Assembly: GCA_048886185.1 (NCBI GenBank)
Contig: JBHLKY010000012.1
Span: 1-32,000, forward strand
DNA: 32,000 nucleotides
Origin: Candidatus Hermodarchaeota archaeon
Lineage (GTDB): Archaea; Asgardarchaeota; Heimdallarchaeia; Hodarchaeales; Hodarchaeaceae
Direction: 5' to 3'
Part shown: one piece after another, positions 14,953-27,950 of the stretch
Layout: the number at the start of each line of letters is the position of its first letter
Numbering within the stretch: the first letter of the stretch is position 1
Translations under genes and position numbers: made by a program
Notes under the pieces: generated by a model
Told to the model about the DNA's origin: nothing
Database searches by the model: none
The model's input: the letters and a program-made list of their open reading frames with translations, nothing else

Positions 14953-15744
14953 ATGAAACTAGTGGTAGGAATCGATATAGGTTCGTTAACAGCAAAAATT
15001 GTTGTTCTAGCGATTCCCAACAGATCAAAGGACGAAATCGAGCAGAAATATTCCTTTATTAAACGCGTAGGTTATAATCCAGCGGGGATTGCCATTGATC
15101 TTATAAATAGTGCAAAAAAGTCTATAGGGGTAGAAAATTTTTCCTATATGATCTCTACTGGTTATGGGAGAAAATTAGTTGAGAATGCTGACGAGAGAAT
15201 AACTGAGATTACATGTCATGCTACAGGAGCCTTTTTTATCAATCCTGATATTCGAACAATAATTGATATTGGAGGACAAGATTCCAAAGTAATTCAAATA
15301 AATGAAAAAGGTCAAATTCAAGATTTCGAGATGAATGATAAATGTAGTGCAGGGACAGGACGCTTCTTGGAAGTCATGGCTAATGCTTTAGAAGTAGAAC
15401 TGTCAGAATTTGGTAATCAAGCCCTAATTTCTACAAATCCAGCTTCTATATCAAGTATATGCACTGTATTTGCAGAATCAGAAGTAATTTCTCGTCTGAA
15501 TCAAGGAGCTAATAGAGTTGATATTATTGCCGGAATTCACAAAACAATTGCCAATAAAATTACTGCATTAGCAGCCCGAGTAGGAATCAAACCATTAATA
15601 GCCTTAACAGGTGGAGTTGCTTTAAATCCAGGAGTGAGAAAAATGCTTGAAAAAAACTTCAACTTACCTATTGAGGTTCCTGTGCATCCCCAAATGATTG
15701 GAGCATTAGGTGCTGCTTTGTTAGCATCTAAAAATCTAGTATAG
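14953..15744 (+). CDS. 2-hydroxyacyl-CoA dehydratase activase (HgdC/HadI; BcrAD/BadFG ATPase family)
   Basis: GIDIGS..K, TGYGR, EITCH, DIGGQDSK, MNDKCSAGTGRFLE, SSICTVFAESE (both [4Fe-4S] Cys present), TGGVA.N. Confidence 0.93.
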   Translation: MKLVVGIDIGSLTAKIVVLAIPNRSKDEIEQKYSFIKRVGYNPAGIAIDLINSAKKSIGVENFSYMISTGYGRKLVENADERITEITCHATGAFFINPDIRTIIDIGGQDSKVIQINEKGQIQDFEMNDKCSAGTGRFLEVMANALEVELSEFGNQALISTNPASISSICTVFAESEVISRLNQGANRVDIIAGIHKTIANKITALAARVGIKPLIALTGGVALNPGVRKMLEKNFNLPIEVPVHPQMIGALGAALLASKNLV

Positions 15745-15764
15745 TTCTAAATAGAGGAATATTA

Positions 15765-16739
15765 TTGTCCAATGTTTACAAAGATTTGACAATTTTAGAT
15801 GTGAAAGAAACACTCAGGCAGATACGACCTTATGTGATTAATACGCCATTAATTAGGTCTTATTATTTAGAAAAACAGATTGGAAAGGAGATATACTTAA
15901 AACTAGAGTATTTACAACCAACACGATCATTTAAAGTTCGTGGAGCTTGCTCAAAGGCATTATCATTAGAGAAAAAAGAACTATCAAAGGGATTAGTTAC
16001 CGCATCTGGCGGAAATCATGGATTGGGAGTATGTTATGCCGGAAGAGAACTCAAAACTCCAGTTATTGTCTTTCTTCCAATAAATACCGCTAAAGAGAAA
16101 GTAACTTCAATACAGCAATGGAGAGGGAAGACAATTTTATTTGGTGAAGCTTGGGATGAGGCAAATCTTAAAGCACAACAATACGCACAAGAGAATGATT
16201 TAACATATATTCACCCGTTTGATGATATAACTGTGGTTAGAGGTCAGGGAACTATAGCAATCGAAATACTAGAGCAAAATCCCTATCTCGATGCAATTGT
16301 GGCTTCAGTTGGAGGAGGAGGTTTGATTAGTGGAGTTGGGGTTGTCTCAAGACAAATGAAACCAGAAATTAAAGTTTGGGGAGTTGAAACAATTGGATGT
16401 GATGCCGTGACACAAAGTTACAGGTTAGGTCATCCTGTCACTTTACCTGCTATTACAAGTATTGCAGACACATTAGGGGCAAAGAGAACAACAGAAGCAA
16501 CCCTAAGCAGAATTAAAGCCGTTGTAAATGATATGCAAACTGTTACTGACAAAGAAGCTTTAGATGCTTTACAGTTACTTTTAGAAAAAGAAAAAATTCT
16601 TGTAGAACCCGCTACTTCATGTTCTGTTGCTGCCTTACTACAAAATAAGTTTGAATTATCAGATGTAGAAAAAATTTGCATCATTTTGTGCGGTGCAAAT
16701 GTTTCCCTTAGACAACTAAGAGAGTGGGGAGTGCTTTGA
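15765..16739 (+). CDS. PLP-dependent threonine/serine dehydratase (catabolic type, no ACT domain)
   Basis: LKLEYLQPTRSFKVRGA (PLP Lys), ASGGNHG, IHPFDD...GQGT, VGGGGLISG, VEPA; TTG start with GAGGA upstream. Confidence 0.92.
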   Translation: MSNVYKDLTILDVKETLRQIRPYVINTPLIRSYYLEKQIGKEIYLKLEYLQPTRSFKVRGACSKALSLEKKELSKGLVTASGGNHGLGVCYAGRELKTPVIVFLPINTAKEKVTSIQQWRGKTILFGEAWDEANLKAQQYAQENDLTYIHPFDDITVVRGQGTIAIEILEQNPYLDAIVASVGGGGLISGVGVVSRQMKPEIKVWGVETIGCDAVTQSYRLGHPVTLPAITSIADTLGAKRTTEATLSRIKAVVNDMQTVTDKEALDALQLLLEKEKILVEPATSCSVAALLQNKFELSDVEKICIILCGANVSLRQLREWGVL

Positions 16740-16818
16740 GCTTTGAAAATTTACTCCTAGTATTTATAATCTTAAACCTGACGGAAGGTTGTGAACAATT
16801 CATAGGAGAAAAGCAATA

Positions 16819-17334
16819 TTGGATGCGTTAGAACTATTAAAAAGTCGTAGAAGTATTCGAAAGTATAAATCAACCCCAGTAGAGCCTGAAAAAATTGAGA
16901 AATGTCTAGAGGCTGCTCAATGGAGTCCCTCTGCCAGCAATAAACAACCTTGGGAATTTCTGATCGTAACGGATGAAGATAAGAGAAAAAAATTAGCTAT
17001 TTTCCATCCTTATGGGAAATTTGTAGCAGAAAGCCCAGTAGTTTTCATTCCTTTAACCAATCCTAAGGTTCATCCCAAATATCATCAATCTGATACTGCC
17101 TTAGCTACCTTACAATTCATAATTGAAGCTCATTCCTTAGGTTTGGGAACTTGTTGGGCAGGGGTCATAGGAACAAACTTTGAAAACAAAATTAAGGATT
17201 TATTAAATATCCCTGAGCATCTAAGAGTACTTGCACTCGTGGCTGTTGGATATGCTAATGAAACTCCTAGTTCTAATCGAAAACCTATTGAGAGCTTAGT
17301 CCATAAAGAATCATACATTCGTCATTATTCCTAA
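16819..17334 (+). CDS. Nitroreductase family protein
   Basis: RRSIRKY, AAQWSPSASNKQPWEF, AHSLGLGTCW, VAVGY; TTTATAA at 16763-16769 suggests its own promoter. Confidence 0.93.
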   Translation: MDALELLKSRRSIRKYKSTPVEPEKIEKCLEAAQWSPSASNKQPWEFLIVTDEDKRKKLAIFHPYGKFVAESPVVFIPLTNPKVHPKYHQSDTALATLQFIIEAHSLGLGTCWAGVIGTNFENKIKDLLNIPEHLRVLALVAVGYANETPSSNRKPIESLVHKESYIRHYS

Positions 17335-17690: not shown

Positions 17691-19586
17691 TTAGTTAGAT
17701 CTTTTTGTTTTTCGGGAAAATATAACAAGTATTCCTATGAATAGAATAATGGATATGTGATTTAAAAATAAACCTGTTTGTTGGATTTGAGTGGTAGTTG
17801 GATTCATTTGCTGGGTCATCGTGCTTACTAGAATGGAAACTATAGAAGAAGATGTAATGATTATTGGTTTCCATAAGACATAATAAGGTCTCATGAATTC
17901 AATTGGAAAAATGGTTTCATTTAGAGAAGAATCTATAAAATAAAAGCGATAGTAATATTCTAATTCCCTACTTAGCCCAATAAACTCATACTGACCAGAA
18001 TCCTTGAAATCTAAATCTTGTAAAACCAATTCTTGATATCCAGCAACACCCCACTCGATCTCTATTCGCACAGGGCGATCAATAGTCCATTCTACTAAAA
18101 TACCTCTTGAAGTATTGAAAAACTCAAGGTGAAGGATTACTGGTTGGTAAGGGGATGGTTCAAATCCCCAAGTGGTTGAGAATGCCAAATTAAAGGTTTT
18201 TGGATAAAGTCGTGTAATGTTATTTTGATCAGCAATCCATAAACGATAATATACCCTGTAACTTACTGGTGCTTTAATTAAAATTGTTCTTGATGTATCA
18301 AGTGTTGTATTAATGTACTTTATTGTTTGATAACCTGCTTCCCCCCATTCTGCAATGATTTGCGTTGGAATATCGGTTTTTAGAGATAATCTGACACCTG
18401 CAGTCGTATTAATTGCATTAAATGAGACTACTTGAGGAGAAAACTCTGAATTTATAAAAACTGATGGTCTCCATTTATTATAGTAATTTCTGATTAATGA
18501 ATTGTTCGTAAGCCTATAAATAACCTCTAACTGGAAAACATGAATCTTTAGATAGTCAAAATTGACTTTACCTTTTCTTGCGTATTTCGAAAGCCCGAAA
18601 TAAGTATCATATTCAGGAAGACTAGATTCAATTGCTGCACTTCCTTCATAAAATAATTGGCTTGCTAGGGCCTTTTTTTGCGTACGAGGGTGTTTTGAGT
18701 ACTCATAAAGTCCAAAAATGGCATAAATATGACCGTTTAAGATAAATTCTAAGTCTTCCTCTTGTTCACAGGGCGATTCGAGAAACCATGTTTTATTGAT
18801 TCCCTCAATAAAAGTAAATCCTCCTTTTTCCCGTGTATAATTGTTTCCTGTGAAAGTGATACCCCCCTCTTCCCATTCATAAGTAAATGTTTCCAAGACT
18901 TTGTTTACTCCTTCTAAATAGGAACTATTTCCAGTGACTTCTTCTGCTCTAAGAAGAACTTGAATAATCAATCCTTGTGCTAACCCTGAGACCCAAGGTA
19001 CAGTTTGTTTATGCCAAAGTGGGATTTTCCAATTATATAGGAAGAAACCATCGTTTGTCATGTTTTTCATTAAAAAATCAGCAATTTTCAGAAGTATACT
19101 ATAATTGTTAATCTGATAATTAAATAATGCGAAGAAAGCTGTTGTTACAGGATTGTATTTCCAACCTAATTCATAATCGTGTAAGCTAATTATAACATAT
19201 TCTCCGGTAAACTGATAGATTCCTTCTTTAAAGTGGCGTTCAATAGAAATTAAATCTTTATAAACTATTTTCCAACCATCAATATCATATTCCTTATAGA
19301 AGGAGTTGTTATTAGGAACATCTGGTGAAACAAGATTTGTTAATCCTTCTTTATGATGATAATCTATATTTTTTGTCTTTTCAAGGATTTTAGGATTTTT
19401 AATTTCTTTTGAATTCGAAAATAAGGAAGTATTGTATGAATAGGTAAAAAAGGATGAATAGGATATTAGGATTATAAGCATAATGAATTGAATCATATTC
19501 TTAGACAGTCTATATTTCAAAATAAATAAGCTAATTCCAACATTAGGTGTTTCCACCTTTATTTCCTCTCTGATAGATTTTTTCAA
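17691..19586 (-). CDS. Membrane-anchored D-glucuronyl C5-epimerase-like surface glycoprotein with two Ig/Fn3-like repeats
   Basis: WVSGLAQG, YL..V..VL..F, GG, WFLESP, FILNGHIYAIFGLYEY, DYLKIHVFQL; N-terminal hydrophobic segment; Thr/Gln spacer, TM helix and basic tail at the C-terminus. Confidence 0.82.
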   Translation of the reverse strand: MKKSIREEIKVETPNVGISLFILKYRLSKNMIQFIMLIILISYSSFFTYSYNTSLFSNSKEIKNPKILEKTKNIDYHHKEGLTNLVSPDVPNNNSFYKEYDIDGWKIVYKDLISIERHFKEGIYQFTGEYVIISLHDYELGWKYNPVTTAFFALFNYQINNYSILLKIADFLMKNMTNDGFFLYNWKIPLWHKQTVPWVSGLAQGLIIQVLLRAEEVTGNSSYLEGVNKVLETFTYEWEEGGITFTGNNYTREKGGFTFIEGINKTWFLESPCEQEEDLEFILNGHIYAIFGLYEYSKHPRTQKKALASQLFYEGSAAIESSLPEYDTYFGLSKYARKGKVNFDYLKIHVFQLEVIYRLTNNSLIRNYYNKWRPSVFINSEFSPQVVSFNAINTTAGVRLSLKTDIPTQIIAEWGEAGYQTIKYINTTLDTSRTILIKAPVSYRVYYRLWIADQNNITRLYPKTFNLAFSTTWGFEPSPYQPVILHLEFFNTSRGILVEWTIDRPVRIEIEWGVAGYQELVLQDLDFKDSGQYEFIGLSRELEYYYRFYFIDSSLNETIFPIEFMRPYYVLWKPIIITSSSIVSILVSTMTQQMNPTTTQIQQTGLFLNHISIILFIGILVIFSRKTKRSN

Positions 19587-20064: not shown

Positions 20065-20073
20065 TTTAATATA
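20065..20073 (+). promoter_or_regulatory. Candidate TATA box for the putative sRNA at 20095
   Basis: TTTAATATA centred about 26 nt upstream of the structured element. Confidence 0.35.
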
Positions 20074-20094
20074 GGATTAAAAAAATGGACAGAA

Positions 20095-20163
20095 TGAGCC
20101 CCTGATGTTCGAAAGGCATATGTCTGATTCGTGATGACTGAAGGTTCCGAACGATGGGGTTCA
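20095..20163 (+). ncRNA. Candidate structured small RNA with a C'/D'-type K-loop
   Basis: Stems UGAGCCCC/GGGGUUCA and GUUCG/CGAAC enclose GU-CUGA-UUC-GUGAUGA-C; roughly 50% GC within very AT-rich upstream intergenic DNA. Confidence 0.45.
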
Positions 20164-20165
20164 CT

Positions 20166-22442
20166 TCATCGAAGAGCCAGTTGAAAGGAGAGATTTTTCT
20201 GTTCTTGTTGTCCAAATCCAATTAAATCAGCTTGGCCTCGCTTTATGGCTAGTTCTGCAGTTTCAACATCGAAATCACCACTACAAACGATGGCGATGTG
20301 AGGAAGATCATCTTTTACTTTTTGGATAAATCGCTCAACACCTGCTTCTTGATCTGATAAATAGTCGATACAAAGTAGCTCGATCCCTGCTTTCTCGATT
20401 GATTTAACGACTATAGATAGTTCATCTTCAGATAAACCATGAAATGGAGCCGAGATATAAAAAGCAAGCATCATGTTTAAAGGAAGATTTGCACGAATCG
20501 CCGTTGCCACTTCTAATGGAAAACTAATACGCTTCTTAAGCGATCCCCCGTATTCATCGCTTCGTTGATTGTATTCTTGTGAGAGAAATTGACCAAGGAG
20601 ATCTGGCTTGTTATGTGTTACGCTTGAGGAGATTTCAACAATATCAAAACCCACACGTGCAGCACGCATTGCAGCTTCAACGAAAGAATCACGAATCTCA
20701 ATAATTTCATCGTCTGATAAAGAACGAGGGGTATCATGATTTATGATTGGGATTGCTGAAGGTGCTATTGGTTGTACACCACATATTGATTTCTTGGTCG
20801 CACCACCTGCATGAGTCAATCTTATACCAATAAGAGATCCGTATTCATGAACTTGATTGACTACTTCCTTAAGCCGAGGAATTACATAATCATCATGAAT
20901 TCCAATTTGATAGAGATGATCCTTTCCTGAAGGAGTTATATAAGCAGGCTCCAGATAGACAAGTCCCGCACCACTCTGAGCTATTTTAGTATAATGGTTA
21001 ATCGCGTCTCGAGTAATCTGGCCATTTACCAGTTCCCCTGCATTTATCTCTCCGATCTTGGTTGAAGGCATTACTACTCGATTTCGAGCTTGCAGCTTTC
21101 CCAATTGGTAAGAACGAGTCAGAATTGATTCTTTTGGAACACGATTTCTAATTATTAAAATCATCAGGGTTGCGATTGTATATAGGGTAGCAGTAAACAT
21201 GAAAACATAGAGAAAACCAAAATTATCTATAATAAATCCTCCAAATGAGGCAGAAAGCGACCAGAACATTCCCCAAGCTAAAGTTTCTAATGAATTCCAT
21301 TTAGCTCTCGAAGTTGATGGAACTACATCCATGACAATAGAACGACTCACAGGTCCAGCTGCATTCATTAAAGCATTACGACTAATATAAAAAATCACCA
21401 GAAGTAATACAGATATAGGAAATGAGATGATCTGATTCTGATATAATAAAAGGTTTACCACCAAGCCCAATAAACAAATAATTGCGAGACCCTGAGTTAA
21501 GAATACTGAACCAATACGCCCAAAGATTCTAATCATCCGTTGAGCTAGAAGTGCTGCTGATCCTGTAATAATAAATGTTGTACCAGTTATAAGATATGTA
21601 AAGAACGGTTTCAAGCCATATCCTATTGTTGGGTTAGCAAATAAAATAGGAAAAAACGCTACTGTAGCCCCAGCACCAAATCCAATGATCACTCCACTGA
21701 TAACTAAAATTGTAGGAGTTATAGCATCATAATAAAACGGATATCCGAATAATGTTACATATGGTTGATCTTTGGTATTTTCTTTCACCAAAGTCCCTGA
21801 CTCAGGAGAAACTGACTTTTTTACCTTAATTACAATTGCCTTATCGTCAGAAGCAAATATCACCGTAATGTAGGCAATTATTGAACATATTGCTCCAATG
21901 AAAATGAGATTTTGAAGCAAAGTGAAATCCCACGCGTCACCAAGGATCAATGTAAGCCCCGCTGCTAAGTAAGGCCCTGCAGCTGATGCTAAAAGGTTAG
22001 CAAAAAACATTTTTGCGAAAACTTGACTTCGACGACCTGGTTCAATAGAATCAGCAATTAATGCCTGTGCAGCCGGACCAGATAATCCCCAACCTATTCC
22101 TCCAAAGGTTTCACTTAGAAAAAGAACAGATAGTGCTACATGAGGAGTTTCAGTCAATGTAGTTGAATAAATAAGCGCAATTTGAGCGAAAACGCCAAAG
22201 AATACAGAGATTCGGATGAGGAGATCTCTCCGATATTTATCTGCAAAATATCCAGAAGGAAACACAAAAATAGTAGAAGCTAATCCTTGTATTGTAAAAA
22301 GATTCCCCAAGATCAAATTAGATTGTCCTAATCCTTGAGGTGGATTGTTTGTTACATAGATAGAGAAAGCAGTCTGAATTATACCCATTCCGATAGCAAA
22401 ACCAATTGTTTGGATATAAGCCAACTTGATATTCCAATTCAC
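20166..22442 (-). CDS. MFS transporter fused to a degenerate NADH:flavin oxidoreductase (Old Yellow Enzyme) domain
   Basis: aa ~1-435 is a 12-TM MFS (GYFADKYRR); then LGKLQARNRVVMP, GAGLVYLE, RLTHAG, APSAI, GFDIVEI, NQRSDEYGGS, ADLIGFG in the same frame with no stop. Confidence 0.88.
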   Translation of the reverse strand: MNWNIKLAYIQTIGFAIGMGIIQTAFSIYVTNNPPQGLGQSNLILGNLFTIQGLASTIFVFPSGYFADKYRRDLLIRISVFFGVFAQIALIYSTTLTETPHVALSVLFLSETFGGIGWGLSGPAAQALIADSIEPGRRSQVFAKMFFANLLASAAGPYLAAGLTLILGDAWDFTLLQNLIFIGAICSIIAYITVIFASDDKAIVIKVKKSVSPESGTLVKENTKDQPYVTLFGYPFYYDAITPTILVISGVIIGFGAGATVAFFPILFANPTIGYGLKPFFTYLITGTTFIITGSAALLAQRMIRIFGRIGSVFLTQGLAIICLLGLVVNLLLYQNQIISFPISVLLLVIFYISRNALMNAAGPVSRSIVMDVVPSTSRAKWNSLETLAWGMFWSLSASFGGFIIDNFGFLYVFMFTATLYTIATLMILIIRNRVPKESILTRSYQLGKLQARNRVVMPSTKIGEINAGELVNGQITRDAINHYTKIAQSGAGLVYLEPAYITPSGKDHLYQIGIHDDYVIPRLKEVVNQVHEYGSLIGIRLTHAGGATKKSICGVQPIAPSAIPIINHDTPRSLSDDEIIEIRDSFVEAAMRAARVGFDIVEISSSVTHNKPDLLGQFLSQEYNQRSDEYGGSLKKRISFPLEVATAIRANLPLNMMLAFYISAPFHGLSEDELSIVVKSIEKAGIELLCIDYLSDQEAGVERFIQKVKDDLPHIAIVCSGDFDVETAELAIKRGQADLIGFGQQEQKNLSFQLALR

Positions 22443-23272: not shown

Positions 23273-23845
23273 GTGGAGGTTTTCTCTATCCCTGTCTGCA
23301 AGAAGTGTCACAATTATGTTATGAAGTTAGACGAGGATAATCCCTGTCCTCACTGTGGAAATATCCAAACCTTGACAGACCGAACAGATGATGAATTTCA
23401 ACCAGTAATTCCACAAGATTTACAATTTGACTTTCATAAGGATATTGGCGACCAAACAAATATTTTTAGAGTACCCACACATCAGGAAATATACGATAAA
23501 ACTTCCTCAAAAGAGGGATTACCTATTCCCCCTCCACCCACTAGTTCGCCAACTCGTGTTTCTCAGGATATTCCTTTAGAATCGATTTTTCCCACATTGG
23601 ATAATGTATCCCTTGATCCGGCTTCCCAAAAAGTATATTTTCAGTTATCTGTCGAATTCCAGATTATATTGAATAATGCCTCAAATTATCGTCAAGGTCT
23701 CTTCCGCTGGAACTTATTATTACCTGACCGGTTACAGGAATATGGATTAACGGAAGAAGCTTGGCATAAAATCGCAGCAAAGGGGGATGGCGATGAAAAA
23801 ATACAAGAACAGTTGAATCGATTGCTCCGATCACTCTTTGGATAA
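23273..23845 (+). CDS. Hypothetical protein: N-terminal Zn ribbon, Pro-rich linker, small C-terminal helical domain
   Basis: CKKC-x12-CPHCG; PIPPPPTSSP; GTG start. Confidence 0.72.
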   Translation: MEVFSIPVCKKCHNYVMKLDEDNPCPHCGNIQTLTDRTDDEFQPVIPQDLQFDFHKDIGDQTNIFRVPTHQEIYDKTSSKEGLPIPPPPTSSPTRVSQDIPLESIFPTLDNVSLDPASQKVYFQLSVEFQIILNNASNYRQGLFRWNLLLPDRLQEYGLTEEAWHKIAAKGDGDEKIQEQLNRLLRSLFG

Positions 23846-23882: not shown

Positions 23883-25226
23883 TTATTCTTTAATCGCAGA
23901 GATATCGATCCCTTTAGTTTCGGGAATTAGTCTCGGAACTATTAACATAGCTAAGTAGGCGAATGTACACGCCAGCATTGCTACAGCTAATGCTTGTGCA
24001 TGTCCTAATGGATTTTCTAAAACTGATACTGATGGTTGGAGAGTCTCTGCAACTATTCCAACAAAGAAAGCTCCCCAAGCTAATCCACGAGCTACCGAGA
24101 AAATAAGAGAAGTAGCAGTCGCACGAACTCTTGTAGGAAAGACTTCACTTGACCAAACTCCGAAGACTCCGTGCATTCCGAAAGATACTGTTAAGACAAG
24201 ACATCCAATTATAATCAAGGGTGTTAGAACAGGGAGTAATATAAAATTAGAAAGAAAGAAAATAAAGGCTCCAATGAGACCAACAATTGAACAACCTATA
24301 AATGCATTTCTCCTCCCAATACGGTCACTCAACCAACCAGTAATAAATAAAGCAAAGGCAGCAATAACCATTACACCTAGCATCACCATCATTGAAAGCG
24401 TACCTGCAGAATCAATTTCCCCACCAGCTTTTTGGAGTTCATAGGTGAACAAGTACTCGAAATAGGTTGGTGCCCAATCAGCGAGAGTATGATAAGCAAA
24501 TTCAGAAAGCCAGAACAATAAAGTCAGTAAAAGGGTAAATTTAAGCCATTTTCCCCTTAATATATCAAAAATTCTAATTTTCTCTCGTTTAACCTCATCA
24601 CCAAGTTGGGATGCTTTTTTATAATCAGACCAGACTTGTGATTCATCTAAACTAAATTCTAAATAAATTAAAAAGGGGATAGGAAAAAGGGCTGATAAAA
24701 AACAGATACGCCATCCATCAAGAACTAAAGGGCCTAAAGTAATGGGCTCAATATTTCCAAAAATCAGGGTGACTATAACAGCCCCAATATAGCCAGCCAC
24801 AAAAGTTGCATGAACCAATCCACCAGCAGCTCCTCGTTTTTTTGAGGAGAAAGTTTCTGATAACAAAGAAAATGAAATACCCCATGAAACACCAAGCCCA
24901 GATAACAATCTGAGTATCGCAAAGACCTCAAACGTGGGTGCCATCGCGGAAAGCGAAGTAAATATCGAATCCCACAATACAGAAAGCAATAATATGTTTT
25001 TTCTTCCAAAACGATCAGCAAGCTCACCAAAAAGCATAGCTCCAGGTACTGTCATAACATATTGGGCAGAGAAAACGAATCCAATTGCTATCTTATCCAC
25101 ATGATATGCAGTACTTATTGTTGTAGCAAGAAGGCTTACTAATACTAAAGCGAAGCCATCGTGGGCCCATCCAATTATTCCAGCAATTAAAACGGGAATT
25201 TTACTAGTGTTTTTCAATTCGCCCAT
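23883..25226 (-). CDS. MFS transporter (sugar/aromatic acid:H+ symporter-like)
   Basis: GELADRFGRK, LRLLSGLG, SETFSSKKRG, GWLSDRIGRR, SEVFPTRVRA, PETKG. Confidence 0.92.
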   Translation of the reverse strand: MGELKNTSKIPVLIAGIIGWAHDGFALVLVSLLATTISTAYHVDKIAIGFVFSAQYVMTVPGAMLFGELADRFGRKNILLLSVLWDSIFTSLSAMAPTFEVFAILRLLSGLGVSWGISFSLLSETFSSKKRGAAGGLVHATFVAGYIGAVIVTLIFGNIEPITLGPLVLDGWRICFLSALFPIPFLIYLEFSLDESQVWSDYKKASQLGDEVKREKIRIFDILRGKWLKFTLLLTLLFWLSEFAYHTLADWAPTYFEYLFTYELQKAGGEIDSAGTLSMMVMLGVMVIAAFALFITGWLSDRIGRRNAFIGCSIVGLIGAFIFFLSNFILLPVLTPLIIIGCLVLTVSFGMHGVFGVWSSEVFPTRVRATATSLIFSVARGLAWGAFFVGIVAETLQPSVSVLENPLGHAQALAVAMLACTFAYLAMLIVPRLIPETKGIDISAIKE

Positions 25227-25684: not shown

Positions 25685-27784
25685 TCATCTAAGGACTCTT
25701 CGTCGGATTTTCGCGGTTAATATTTGTTGCAAGAACACCTGTTTCAAGTATGTTGTTTTTTCAATTATTTTTTGAGTTGTGATTAATTTAGTATCAATAG
25801 CTGAGAGAATGTTTACAATGTCTTTTTGTTCGCTCAAAGGAGGGAGGAAAATTTGGATCGTATTAAAATCTGATCTGTTAATTCCTCCCACAACCCCATG
25901 GAATCTTTTTTTGATTTGGTTCTGGCAGATGGAAGAGAATAATAAATAAAATAGAAAATAATTATCCAAAACTTCCCTATCTTTACTTCTTACAATAAAA
26001 ATATGTTCATTAACAGCGATTTTCTCATAGGGTAAATCCCTTACTAGACCGACTTTCCCTGTAGTTGCTCCGTCTTTCACTACTAGAATATCATTCAACT
26101 GTACTTTTCCCTGTGAAAGGTTCTTATCATAGAATTCCTCTGGAATGAATTTGATATTCGTCCAAAGAATTTGACCTGAATCATTAATATGTTCTCCCCC
26201 AATACTGGCTACTACTCCCTCTTTTAATGCTCCACCTTTGGCTCTTTTCCCTGTTTCTAACTCCACAAACTCCCCCAAGTATACCTTACGCCATGTATCA
26301 GGAATGTTTTTCATTAAACTTTCTTCAAATCCATTAAAGATATCATCGATTTTCTGATTGATGTCCTTTTGTTTCTCGTCTAATTTTTTCAATTCAGAAA
26401 TATCAGAATTTAGCTGAGAAATGTTTTTTGGATCATCTTCCACAGTCGTCTCAATATAAAGGGGAATATTCAGATTATATCCATATTCTCTTATTTCTCT
26501 TAACGAAGCTACCCTTGAGAATCTTTTAATAGAATTAAAATTTTTGAATGCCATAACGATTTTAGCTATATCCTCCTCCTGTAAAATGTTCTTGGATCTT
26601 TCCTCTTTGTAGAGTTGAAATGCATCAATGAACAGTATCTTATTTTTTCGGTCTGGGTGTTTTTTCTTGTTAAGCAATACAATAGCTGCTGGAATTGACG
26701 TTCCATAAAAGAGATTAGGAGCTATTCCAATAATTGCTTCTATTAAATCATTGTCAACCAAAGCTTTTCGGATTTTTTTTTCATTACCTCCTCTGAACAA
26801 AATACCATGAGGAAATATCGCTCCCATTCGTCCATTAGGCTGTAATGTGGCTAACATATGCTGTAAAAAAGCCATATCGCCATATGATTTTGGAGGTATT
26901 CCATATTTAAAACGATTGTATGAATCATTTTTTGCTATTTCAATTCCCCAATGCGCTAGAGAAAAGGGGGGATTTGCGATAACGATATCAAACAGTATTA
27001 ATTGATCATCCTCAATCAGCTTCGGATTTCGAATTGTATCTCCACTTTTTATTTTAAAATTAGCTATTCCATGTAGTACCATATTCATAATACAAATTGA
27101 CCATGTATGTATGTTCTTTTCTTGCCCATAAAGTGATAAATTCAGCCAATTACCCCCGTTTCTTTTAATATACTCAACACATTGGATTAACATCCCTCCT
27201 GATCCTACTGTTGGATCTGAAATACACATTCCCTCTTCTGGTGAGAGTAATTCTACCAAGAGTCTGACAACCATATGAGGAGTATAAAATTCTCCTCCCT
27301 TCTTACCAGCTGATTCAGCAAACTGAGCAATTAAATATTCATAGGCCCTACCCAATATATCAGGGTCAGTTAAATCACAATTTCGTAGTCGTAGATTGCT
27401 AAAATGCCTAATTAGATGATTCACTGTTTCATTGGATAAACGGTCACTAATATCAAAGCTAATTCCCGTTAAAACCCCTTTTAAAACAGGGTTGTGTTTT
27501 TCGATTACATCACATGCCTTCATTAAAGATGAGGCGTTGAGTGCAGGCCATTGAGCTTGTTTAGGGATGAAAAATGCATAATTATCAAGTTTGTCCTTTT
27601 CAGAATTGTTCACATGTTGAATTTTCTTTTCAATTTCTTCTTCAAAAACATCATTTAATCGTTTTAAGAATAACAAGCTAAAAATATAGTGCTTATATTC
27701 AGAGGCATCAACACTCCCCCTTAAAATATTGCTTGCTTCCCAAAGATGTTTCTCTAACTCTTCTTGACTTATTTTTATGCCCAT
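25685..27784 (-). CDS. hsdM: Type I N6-adenine methyltransferase (HsdM) fused to a single-TRD specificity module (half HsdS)
   Basis: LW.ASNILRG..DASEYK.YI..LLFLKRL, LGRAYEYLI..FA, GEFYTP, DPTVGSGGM, NPPF; then IPDTW..VYLGE, TRD, LPPLSEQKDIV.IL..ID. ATG 27784 is preferred. Confidence 0.92.
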   Translation of the reverse strand: MGIKISQEELEKHLWEASNILRGSVDASEYKHYIFSLLFLKRLNDVFEEEIEKKIQHVNNSEKDKLDNYAFFIPKQAQWPALNASSLMKACDVIEKHNPVLKGVLTGISFDISDRLSNETVNHLIRHFSNLRLRNCDLTDPDILGRAYEYLIAQFAESAGKKGGEFYTPHMVVRLLVELLSPEEGMCISDPTVGSGGMLIQCVEYIKRNGGNWLNLSLYGQEKNIHTWSICIMNMVLHGIANFKIKSGDTIRNPKLIEDDQLILFDIVIANPPFSLAHWGIEIAKNDSYNRFKYGIPPKSYGDMAFLQHMLATLQPNGRMGAIFPHGILFRGGNEKKIRKALVDNDLIEAIIGIAPNLFYGTSIPAAIVLLNKKKHPDRKNKILFIDAFQLYKEERSKNILQEEDIAKIVMAFKNFNSIKRFSRVASLREIREYGYNLNIPLYIETTVEDDPKNISQLNSDISELKKLDEKQKDINQKIDDIFNGFEESLMKNIPDTWRKVYLGEFVELETGKRAKGGALKEGVVASIGGEHINDSGQILWTNIKFIPEEFYDKNLSQGKVQLNDILVVKDGATTGKVGLVRDLPYEKIAVNEHIFIVRSKDREVLDNYFLFYLLFSSICQNQIKKRFHGVVGGINRSDFNTIQIFLPPLSEQKDIVNILSAIDTKLITTQKIIEKTTYLKQVFLQQILTAKIRRRVLR

Positions 27785-27950
27785 ATAACTGTGCAATTTT
27801 CTTTGATGGTGTTTTTTTTGCATTTGATATGCCCAAGTCGATCATTCTGATGAATAATTTTTCAATAAAAAGACTTCTTAAAACCTTATTGAAATTGAGA
27901 TTTACTCAATCCTAAATTATGTATTCCAACCCATAGGGAAAATAATCCAA

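Follow-up and report, generated by a model that had tools for sequence, protein, structure and literature searches.

A major facilitator superfamily transporter fused to a catalytically degenerate Old Yellow Enzyme barrel in one lineage of Asgard archaea

Organisation of the gene and its product

The first 32,000 nucleotides of contig JBHLKY010000012.1 from a Candidatus Hermodarchaeota archaeon (hereafter the window) carry on the reverse strand, at positions 20166-22442, a gene whose product joins a major facilitator superfamily (MFS) transporter to a TIM barrel of the Old Yellow Enzyme (OYE) family. The gene is a single unbroken open reading frame (ORF) of 758 codons, running from a GTG start at 22442 to 20169 and closed by a stop codon at 20166-20168. 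A first-pass annotation made from the sequence alone had described a continuous frame across the two domains, and this description holds, the strings that it quoted all lying where it had placed them. The start motif MNWN is common to 12 orthologous loci; the orthologues also share the same C-terminal end (...ALR), with no internal stop or frameshift in the full-length copies.

Along the protein, a 12-helix MFS transporter (residues 1-433, positions 21144-22442) is followed by a near-invariant linker of 11 residues, RVPKESILTRS (residues 434-444, positions 21111-21143), which leads from the twelfth predicted transmembrane (TM) helix into the N-terminal hairpin of an OYE-fold (beta/alpha)8 barrel (residues 445-758, positions 20169-21110), catalytically degenerate and predicted to be cytoplasmic. 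The junction reads ...IIRNRVPKESILTRSYQLGKLQARNRVVMP, with Pro436 encoded at 21135-21137. The Pfam model MFS_1 matches residues 15-346 at 98.7 bits (cut-off 33.4) and PF00724 (Oxidored_FMN) matches residues 446-745 at 127.8 bits (cut-off 27, E 7.6e-37), the barrel scoring 129.5 bits for PF00724 in a six-frame search of the genome. The OYE-type models of NCBIfam (NamA, FadH-like, BaiCD) reach the C-terminal part at a mere fraction of their cut-offs.

In the full-length AlphaFold2 (AF2) model (pLDDT 80.6, pTM 0.69), 12 long helices and a disordered central loop (residues 197-237) precede the barrel. The profile match, the 12 TM helices predicted in two six-helix bundles, the central cytoplasmic loop and a motif-A-like loop between TM2 and TM3 (GYFADKYRRD, residues 64-73) identify the N-terminal part, as modelled, as an MFS protein. 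Within this loop G64, D68, R71, R72 and D73 are invariant, unfused and outgroup forms included, Arg71 standing where motif A canonically has Gly, and R355, D372 and E386 are invariant charges embedded in the membrane. Low ratios of non-synonymous to synonymous substitution (dN/dS, given below), together with these charges and the motif-A-like loop, support the view that the MFS part is a functional carrier. All its subfamily matches are below threshold and of the DHA-type efflux kind (TIGR00880, TIGR00900, EntS, MFS_3), and proton-coupled export like that of the drug:H+ antiporters is its probable activity. Sequence and profile searches returned no significant relative of the MFS part in the PDB. 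Basic residues cluster in the TM2-3, TM8-9 and TM10-11 loops, in the central loop and in the stretch after TM12, so that both termini and the barrel are predicted to lie in the cytoplasm.

Occurrence of the fusion in Asgard archaea

The first-pass annotation had asked for independent copies of the fusion as a check against misassembly, and such copies were found. A search of 5.8 billion proteins recovered ~35 distinct full-length MFS-OYE proteins of 737-780 residues, at 49-77% identity, the source labels of which are Asgard metagenome-assembled genomes of Hodarchaeales, Hodarchaeota, Heimdallarchaeota and Promethearchaeota. When one genome per GTDB species was scanned, 13 loci with the complete fusion were found, two of them on closed chromosomes (CP070695 and CP070760). 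In the GTDB family to which the window belongs, and which has a single genus code, 14 of the 22 species genomes have the fusion at full length and one more has it as fragments at contig ends. Furthermore, Logan contigs of four sequencing runs (DNA from one sediment study, possibly the source of the window's assembly) cover the gene and span the junction near 21135 with zero differences; no RNA run was found among the runs containing the gene. The MFS-OYE fusion is genuine and is not an artefact of assembly.

Among 201 Asgard genomes sampled evenly across the phylum, the full-length fusion is confined to the window's own family, and such MFS homologues as occur in the 179 genomes from elsewhere in the phylum are all unfused. 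In the other families of the class these homologues are ~430-450 residues long (250-350 bits), and canonical OYE or FadH-like enzymes are encoded separately. ORFs of ~793 residues with OYE matches in sister families were rejected as further fusions with a transporter, being canonical FadH-like proteins (OYE plus FAD/NAD domains) with an intact HGYL motif. A whole-protein search of protein clusters, limited to those with at least 50 members, returned generic MFS clusters and no second MFS-OYE architecture. When the barrel profile was run against 1.84 billion representative sequences, the family came out as one cluster at 477 bits, the next complete and non-tandem proteins being canonical OYEs at no more than 200 bits, and no free-standing copy of the fused barrel was found among these representatives. 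Two candidates were discarded: P0122, a fragment in which an unrelated N-terminal sequence precedes the C-terminal half of a family member, and P0123, a tandem canonical OYE and not a free-standing or differently fused copy of the barrel.

The fused proteins bear the public names 'MFS transporter' or '2,4-dienoyl-CoA reductase-like NADH-dependent reductase (OYE family)'. The second of these is misleading, since metabolic reconstructions of Asgard archaea that relied on it would include an ene-reductase in error.

Fold of the barrel and loss of the OYE active site

Modelled with the family alignment as input, the barrel is predicted by AF2 to be a (beta/alpha)8 barrel (pLDDT 87.8, pTM 0.89). 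Its best structural matches in the PDB are the ene-reductase of Thermus scotoductus (TsER), YqjM-type OYEs and XenA (TM score 0.82-0.88); in Foldseek, TsER (8uaj/3hf3) is superposed at a TM score of 0.87-0.88 and an rmsd of 2.7-2.9 A with ~28% identity, and the family profile matches YqjM (1z41) with an E value of 5e-43. Several scaffold motifs are kept (KNR, HAG, GFDxxE and FLSxxxNxRxDxYGG). The barrel resembles YqjM, TsER and XenA (1z41, 3hf3, 8uaj) in its fold, in its N-terminal hairpin, in its best sequence and profile matches and in its scaffold motifs. It differs from them in that all the side chains contacting the flavin ring and the phosphate and those of catalysis are replaced, in a variable insert of 4-5 residues after beta4, in having no C-terminal extension and in being always fused to an MFS protein, never free-standing.

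To describe these losses, the 35 fused members were compared with 28 canonical OYEs that the profile search had returned, and also with three canonical paralogues of the same genome. The Gln of beta3, which contacts N3 and O2 of the flavin and is present in 28/28 canonical OYEs, is replaced by Arg541 (positions 20820-20822) in 34/35 fused proteins. In the degenerate beta4 segment EISSSVTHNKPDLLGQFL (residues 603-620, positions 20583-20636), the first His, found in all 28 canonical OYEs, is Ser605 (S in 30 members, A in four), and the second His, equally constant in the canonical set, is Leu, Val, Phe or Ile at position 608 (Val608 in the window). The proton-donor Tyr (Tyr, sometimes Phe, in canonical OYEs) is Asp, Asn or Ser at position 614, and the variable insert has no counterpart in canonical OYEs. 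His610 of the window falls within the insert and is present in only 7/35 members. The beta5 Arg, also in 28/28 canonical OYEs, corresponds to Tyr662 in the window (positions 20457-20459) and to Tyr or His in 18 and 13 fused members, respectively. At beta7 the second Gly (17/28 canonical OYEs) is Asp723 in 25/35 fused proteins, the window reading Gly722-Asp723. Finally, the beta8 Gly-Arg motif of the flavin mononucleotide (FMN) phosphate site (Gly and Arg each in 27 of 28 canonical OYEs) reads Gly744-Gln745 in the window (positions 20208-20213), with Gly, Glu or Ser in 19, 12 and four fused members followed by Arg, Lys or Gln in 14, 10 and six, and acidic residues occupy the would-be phosphate site in the fused barrel. 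These losses are family-wide (35/35 members), whereas the three canonical paralogues retain the key residues, except for the Tyr and a beta3 His in one of them. The latter (L022, contig 10 of the same genome, 408 residues) reads AQLENG in place of QLxHxG and HSAH-GGLL with Gly for the Tyr, and has a Cys-rich C-terminal extension.

The comparison with TsER, YqjM and the canonical set bears out what the first-pass annotation had read at the active site, that is, the change of the first His to Ser, the loss of the proton-donor Tyr and the GQ at the phosphate site, and shows that the canonical residues are lost across the family. The insert, which it had put at four residues, is of 4-5 residues in our alignments, and the chain ends 13 and not 12 residues after Gly744-Gln745, with no C-terminal extension beyond beta8. 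The changes at beta3 (Arg541) and beta5 (Tyr662) had been overlooked. By sequence family and predicted fold the barrel is a member of the OYEs, but it passes none of the residue-level tests for FMN binding or catalysis. Because the side chains of the flavin ring and phosphate sites and those of hydride and proton transfer are lost, it is almost certain that the barrel does not reduce alkenes and does not bind FMN in the canonical manner. As a homologue of enzymes that has lost its catalytic residues family-wide and is under purifying selection, it would qualify as a pseudoenzyme, in agreement with the earlier description of a pseudo-enzyme domain.

Selection on the barrel and location of the constrained residues

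Nei-Gojobori estimates from codon alignments of 13 orthologues, restricted to the pairs with unsaturated dS (L009/L012, L006/L008 and L002/L003), gave dN/dS of 0.09-0.22 for the barrel and 0.08-0.12 for the MFS part. In protein sequence, the barrel evolves ~1.4 times faster than the MFS part (mean pairwise identity 0.53 versus 0.66), and its identity never falls below 41%. Neutral decay of the domain, which the first-pass annotation had kept as an alternative, is not what these ratios indicate; the barrel is under purifying selection.

The location of this constraint was examined with the frequency of the major residue as the conservation measure. On the predicted secondary structure, the top face was defined as the C-terminal ends of the strands plus the four following residues, which form the ligand face in TIM-barrel enzymes, and the bottom as the N-terminal ends of the strands with the preceding loops. 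In the fused family, conservation is 0.65 for the top face, 0.65 over all positions, 0.76 for the bottom, 0.57 for the helices and 0.83 for the linker region (residues 436-447). The corresponding values for the 28 canonical OYEs are 0.62, 0.53, 0.61 and 0.50, with 0.40 for their first 12 residues. A permutation test for enrichment of conservation on the top face gave p 0.46 for the fused family and p 0.01 for the canonical OYEs. Variation in the fused family peaks at the end of beta4 above the old pocket (0.2-0.4), where indels also occur. In contrast to this stretch, linker residues P436, E438, S439 and L441 are invariant in 35/35 members, as is Y445 just past the linker. Since the top face of the fused barrel is at background whereas that of canonical OYEs is enriched, the constraint appears to have moved away from the former active site, towards the linker-held side of the barrel that would face the membrane protein.

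A comparison of the MFS part itself between fused proteins and their unfused relatives is in keeping with this shift. Eight positions are at least 90% conserved in the fused proteins and different in the unfused ones, of which six are predicted to be cytoplasmic, lying in the central loop, at the end of TM8, the start of TM9, the end of TM10, the end of TM12 and in the tail; none is on the outside.

Origin and secondary loss of the barrel

In a maximum-likelihood tree of the MFS part, rooted on homologues from the class, the fused proteins and their close unfused relatives form one clade (support 100/100). The unfused protein P0046 is nested inside a clade of fused proteins that is itself supported at 100/100, and seven more unfused proteins lie together with fused ones inside a clade supported at 82/96. 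The well-supported branches require at least two changes, one gain and at least one loss of the barrel. On this tree the fusion arose once, in one Hodarchaeales-type lineage, from an MFS family present unfused across the class, and the barrel is derived and dispensable, having been secondarily lost at least once among the descendants. The origin of the fusion can in this way be dated to one lineage.

Two of the seven unfused proteins (P0049 and P0044, encoded at loci L014 and L015) occupy exactly the position of the fused gene, with a divergent cyclophilin gene upstream and genes for a nitroreductase, a pyridoxal phosphate (PLP) enzyme and a BcrAD-type activase downstream. They end directly after TM12. 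The idea of a split gene was rejected for these loci, no barrel ORF being found near the unfused orthologues of L014 and L015. In another genome (L023:1970-5598), an unfused MFS paralogue (P0054, 426 residues, ending ...VPKESIV) is convergent to a fused copy of 764 residues, the two genes being 53 bp apart, which provides a natural pair of transporters with and without the barrel in one genome. Both the syntenic orthologues and the paralogues without the barrel are natural deletion controls.

Comparison with known transporters bearing accessory domains

Three systems offer partial analogies. YajR of E. coli (PDB 3WDO) is a 12-TM MFS transporter of the DHA1 type with an extra cytosolic C-terminal domain (PMC8154325). 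It resembles the fused protein, itself probably of the efflux type, as a prokaryotic 12-TM MFS protein with a folded, non-transport domain at the cytoplasmic C-terminus, the role of which in YajR is accessory and poorly understood. The extra domain of YajR is small (~65 residues) and is not derived from an enzyme. The domain described here, on the other hand, is a TIM barrel of 314 residues of flavoenzyme descent, and the MFS parts have no detectable sequence relation.

The Kv-beta proteins are aldo-keto-reductase (AKR) TIM barrels located on the cytoplasmic face of Kv1 channels (PMC12043502, PMC9317154). They share with the fused protein an oxidoreductase-fold TIM barrel at the cytoplasmic side of a membrane transport protein and are the conceptual model for a sensor. 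In Kv-beta, however, the NADPH site and the catalytic activity are preserved, and the protein is a separate subunit, belongs to the AKR superfamily and regulates a channel, whereas in the fused protein the cofactor site is destroyed, the attachment is covalent and the partner is a secondary carrier.

In the third system, LplT, an MFS lysophospholipid flippase, works with the acyltransferase/acyl-ACP synthetase Aas, to which it is fused in some bacteria (PMC11416262). An MFS protein and a cytoplasmic module of enzyme type thus form one functional unit or one polypeptide there also, but Aas is active and processes the transported lipid, whereas the fused barrel has no ancestral active site left. 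The sole sequence link between the two is an MFS-level match of our protein to NF006386, below threshold (E 0.024).

Possible role of the fused barrel

Taking together the loss of the active site and the distribution of conserved residues, we propose that the barrel serves the transporter as an accessory domain without catalytic function, braced against its cytoplasmic side, a reading that we consider probable, although far from certain. The gene encodes one polypeptide in which the last MFS helix runs through the short linker into the barrel, predicted to be cytoplasmic. The barrel itself descends from a flavoenzyme of the YqjM/TsER type and would be kept by selection as a folded, non-catalytic module. 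Constraint is strongest in the linker, in the N-terminal hairpin and at the barrel bottom, from which we infer that the barrel leans against the cytoplasmic face of the C-terminal six-helix bundle. In such a position it could lend stability to the rocker-switch cycle, modulate it, or present a surface for docking. We do not believe that flavin or nicotinamide ligands are sensed in the old pocket. Among the roles considered, a brace or docking platform seems to fit the conservation pattern best. A complex prediction between the MFS part (residues 1-432) and the barrel gave a score of 0.00; it was run without controls and has no weight either way.

Several points weigh against this proposal. Family-specific invariant residues stand at the ends of strands beta2, beta3 and beta7 (Pro499-Ala500, Arg541 and Gly722-Asp-Phe-Asp725) and could form a new site. 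A flavin might be bound in a non-canonical way, or another ligand. The top and bottom faces were taken from predicted secondary structure and not from coordinates, and stability by itself is often enough to keep the loops at the bottom of a barrel conserved. How the barrel would dock on the MFS part is deduced from the short linker and the conservation pattern by themselves, and the cytoplasmic excess of fused-specific MFS positions, drawn from eight positions, is a hint.

The next explanation, which we regard as unlikely, is that of a regulatory domain in which the remodelled barrel would bind a cytosolic small molecule (redox cofactor, metabolite or the transported substrate) and gate the MFS part allosterically. 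A domain that is predicted to be cytoplasmic, rigidly linked and under purifying selection would suit such a role, as would the family-specific invariant polar residues at the strand ends (Arg541, His544, Asp723/Asp725), and the Kv-beta barrels are a precedent for an oxidoreductase fold that regulates a membrane transport protein (PMC12043502). The old pocket face, however, is conserved at background level, unlike that of real OYEs, the beta4 loop above it is hypervariable with indels, the positions contacting flavin and nicotinamide are all replaced, the phosphate site is acidified, and some lineages have lost the domain without acquiring a substitute. A conserved pocket in the accessory domain, the key signature of a ligand gate, does not emerge by the secondary-structure proxy. 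The sensor of flavin, NAD(P)H or substrate gating transport, or transceptor, that the first-pass annotation had proposed is at best weakly supported. In a broader form, a remodelled pocket or surface of the barrel would respond to a partner protein or to a cytosolic signal (redox state or a metabolite) and switch the transporter on or off; we find this allosteric gate decidedly unlikely. If true, Hodarchaeales-type archaea of the Heimdall group would have invented a version of the Kv-beta principle that is covalently fused and works without a cofactor.

A neofunctionalised enzyme, in which a new, flavin-independent active site would modify the transported substrate on the cytoplasmic side, appears improbable and is the least likely of the roles weighed so far (brace or docking, ligand gate, enzyme). 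TIM barrels readily evolve new chemistries. The low dN/dS and the invariance of Asp600, Glu603, Arg541, His544 and His516 would be compatible with such a site, and transport-coupled catalysis would resemble the partnership of an MFS protein with an enzyme known from LplT and Aas (PMC11416262). Against it, most of the invariant residues belong to the scaffold common to canonical OYEs (D600, E603, H544 and the NxRxDxYGG motif), constraint on the catalytic face is relaxed and not enhanced, and the gene has no conserved operon partner or pathway context.

Less probable still is a module for oligomerisation or partner docking, in which the barrel would keep the di- or tetramerisation of YqjM and assemble transporter dimers or recruit another protein. 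Enzymes of the YqjM/TsER type, the closest relatives of the barrel, are obligate oligomers, and conservation outside the old active site is compatible with surfaces for protein-protein contacts. In YqjM the Arg finger and a portion of the dimer interface lie in a C-terminal segment that is nevertheless missing here, the chain stopping soon after beta8, and the helices, which make up most of the outer surface of the barrel, are the least conserved class. Lastly, an artefact in which two genes were joined by misassembly or read-through, or a neutral drift of the barrel towards loss, might be imagined from the faster evolution of the barrel and its absence in some lineages, but both are refuted by the recurrence of the same junction and linker in ~35 proteins from many assemblies and two closed chromosomes, by the contigs crossing the junction without variants, by the full-length copies free of stops and frameshifts, and by the dN/dS of the barrel.

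In the literature searched, neither an MFS-OYE fusion nor an OYE-family pseudoenzyme was found to be described, and nothing relevant came up on OYEs of Asgard archaea; the protein is therefore a new architecture for the catalogues of MFS accessory domains and of pseudoenzymes. It offers a clean natural case of an enzyme fold that would have been recruited as a non-catalytic appendage of a secondary transporter. The fusion has no bearing on a long-standing open question and is a real and undescribed architecture, not a revolutionary one.

Other degenerate OYE-family proteins

Two further OYE-family proteins came to light during the searches. P0155 (L025:5001-5975) is a free-standing protein of 324 residues, 33% identical to the window's barrel, the gene of which lies on a contig of bacterial appearance, immediately upstream of an iscR-iscS-iscU-iscA-hscB-hscA cluster. 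Loss of the same residues has occurred in it independently: it reads IRLSHAG, with Arg in place of Gln, and lacks both the His pair and the beta5 Arg. A further member, P0242 (IEISATTGGLLGQFLS), is degenerate in part. Pseudoenzymes with the OYE fold may occur more widely than has been recognised.

Neighbouring genes

The MFS-OYE gene is flanked by genes for a cyclophilin, a C5-epimerase-like protein and a nitroreductase, which are separate transcription units, and no conserved operon partner or pathway link was found in its neighbourhood. On the forward strand, positions 14953-17334 encode a BcrAD/BadFG-type activase ATPase, a PLP-dependent enzyme (PALP) and a small nitroreductase. This trio accompanies the MFS locus in L014, in L015 and partly in L023; no functional link to the transporter was found. 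Between the nitroreductase and MFS-OYE genes lies, at 17691-19586 on the reverse strand, the gene of a membrane-anchored protein of 631 residues with a D-glucuronyl C5-epimerase C-terminal domain (PF06662, E 3.9e-32). The syntenic position is occupied by the gene of a zinc-ribbon membrane protein in L014 and L015, and by that of the unfused MFS paralogue in L023.

Just downstream of the stop codon, at 20095-20124, the assembly graph breaks in two of the four runs. An alternative sequence departs at 20095, leaving loose ends in X3 and X4, and additional short contigs cover 20095-20130, which suggests a strain variant or a short repeat in the 3' intergenic region. The break overlaps a putative K-loop small RNA at 20065-20163.

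On the other side of the gene, an ORF of 190 residues at 23273-23845 (forward strand), with an N-terminal zinc-ribbon motif (CxxC...CxxC) and no Pfam match, separates the cyclophilin gene from that of a second, unrelated MFS protein of the sugar-porter type (447 residues, 23883-25226, reverse strand), which is located two genes away from the fused one. Further along, at 25685-27823 on the reverse strand, an ORF of 712 residues combines HsdM_N, N6_Mtase and Methylase_S domains and encodes a fused methylase-specificity protein of a type I restriction-modification system.

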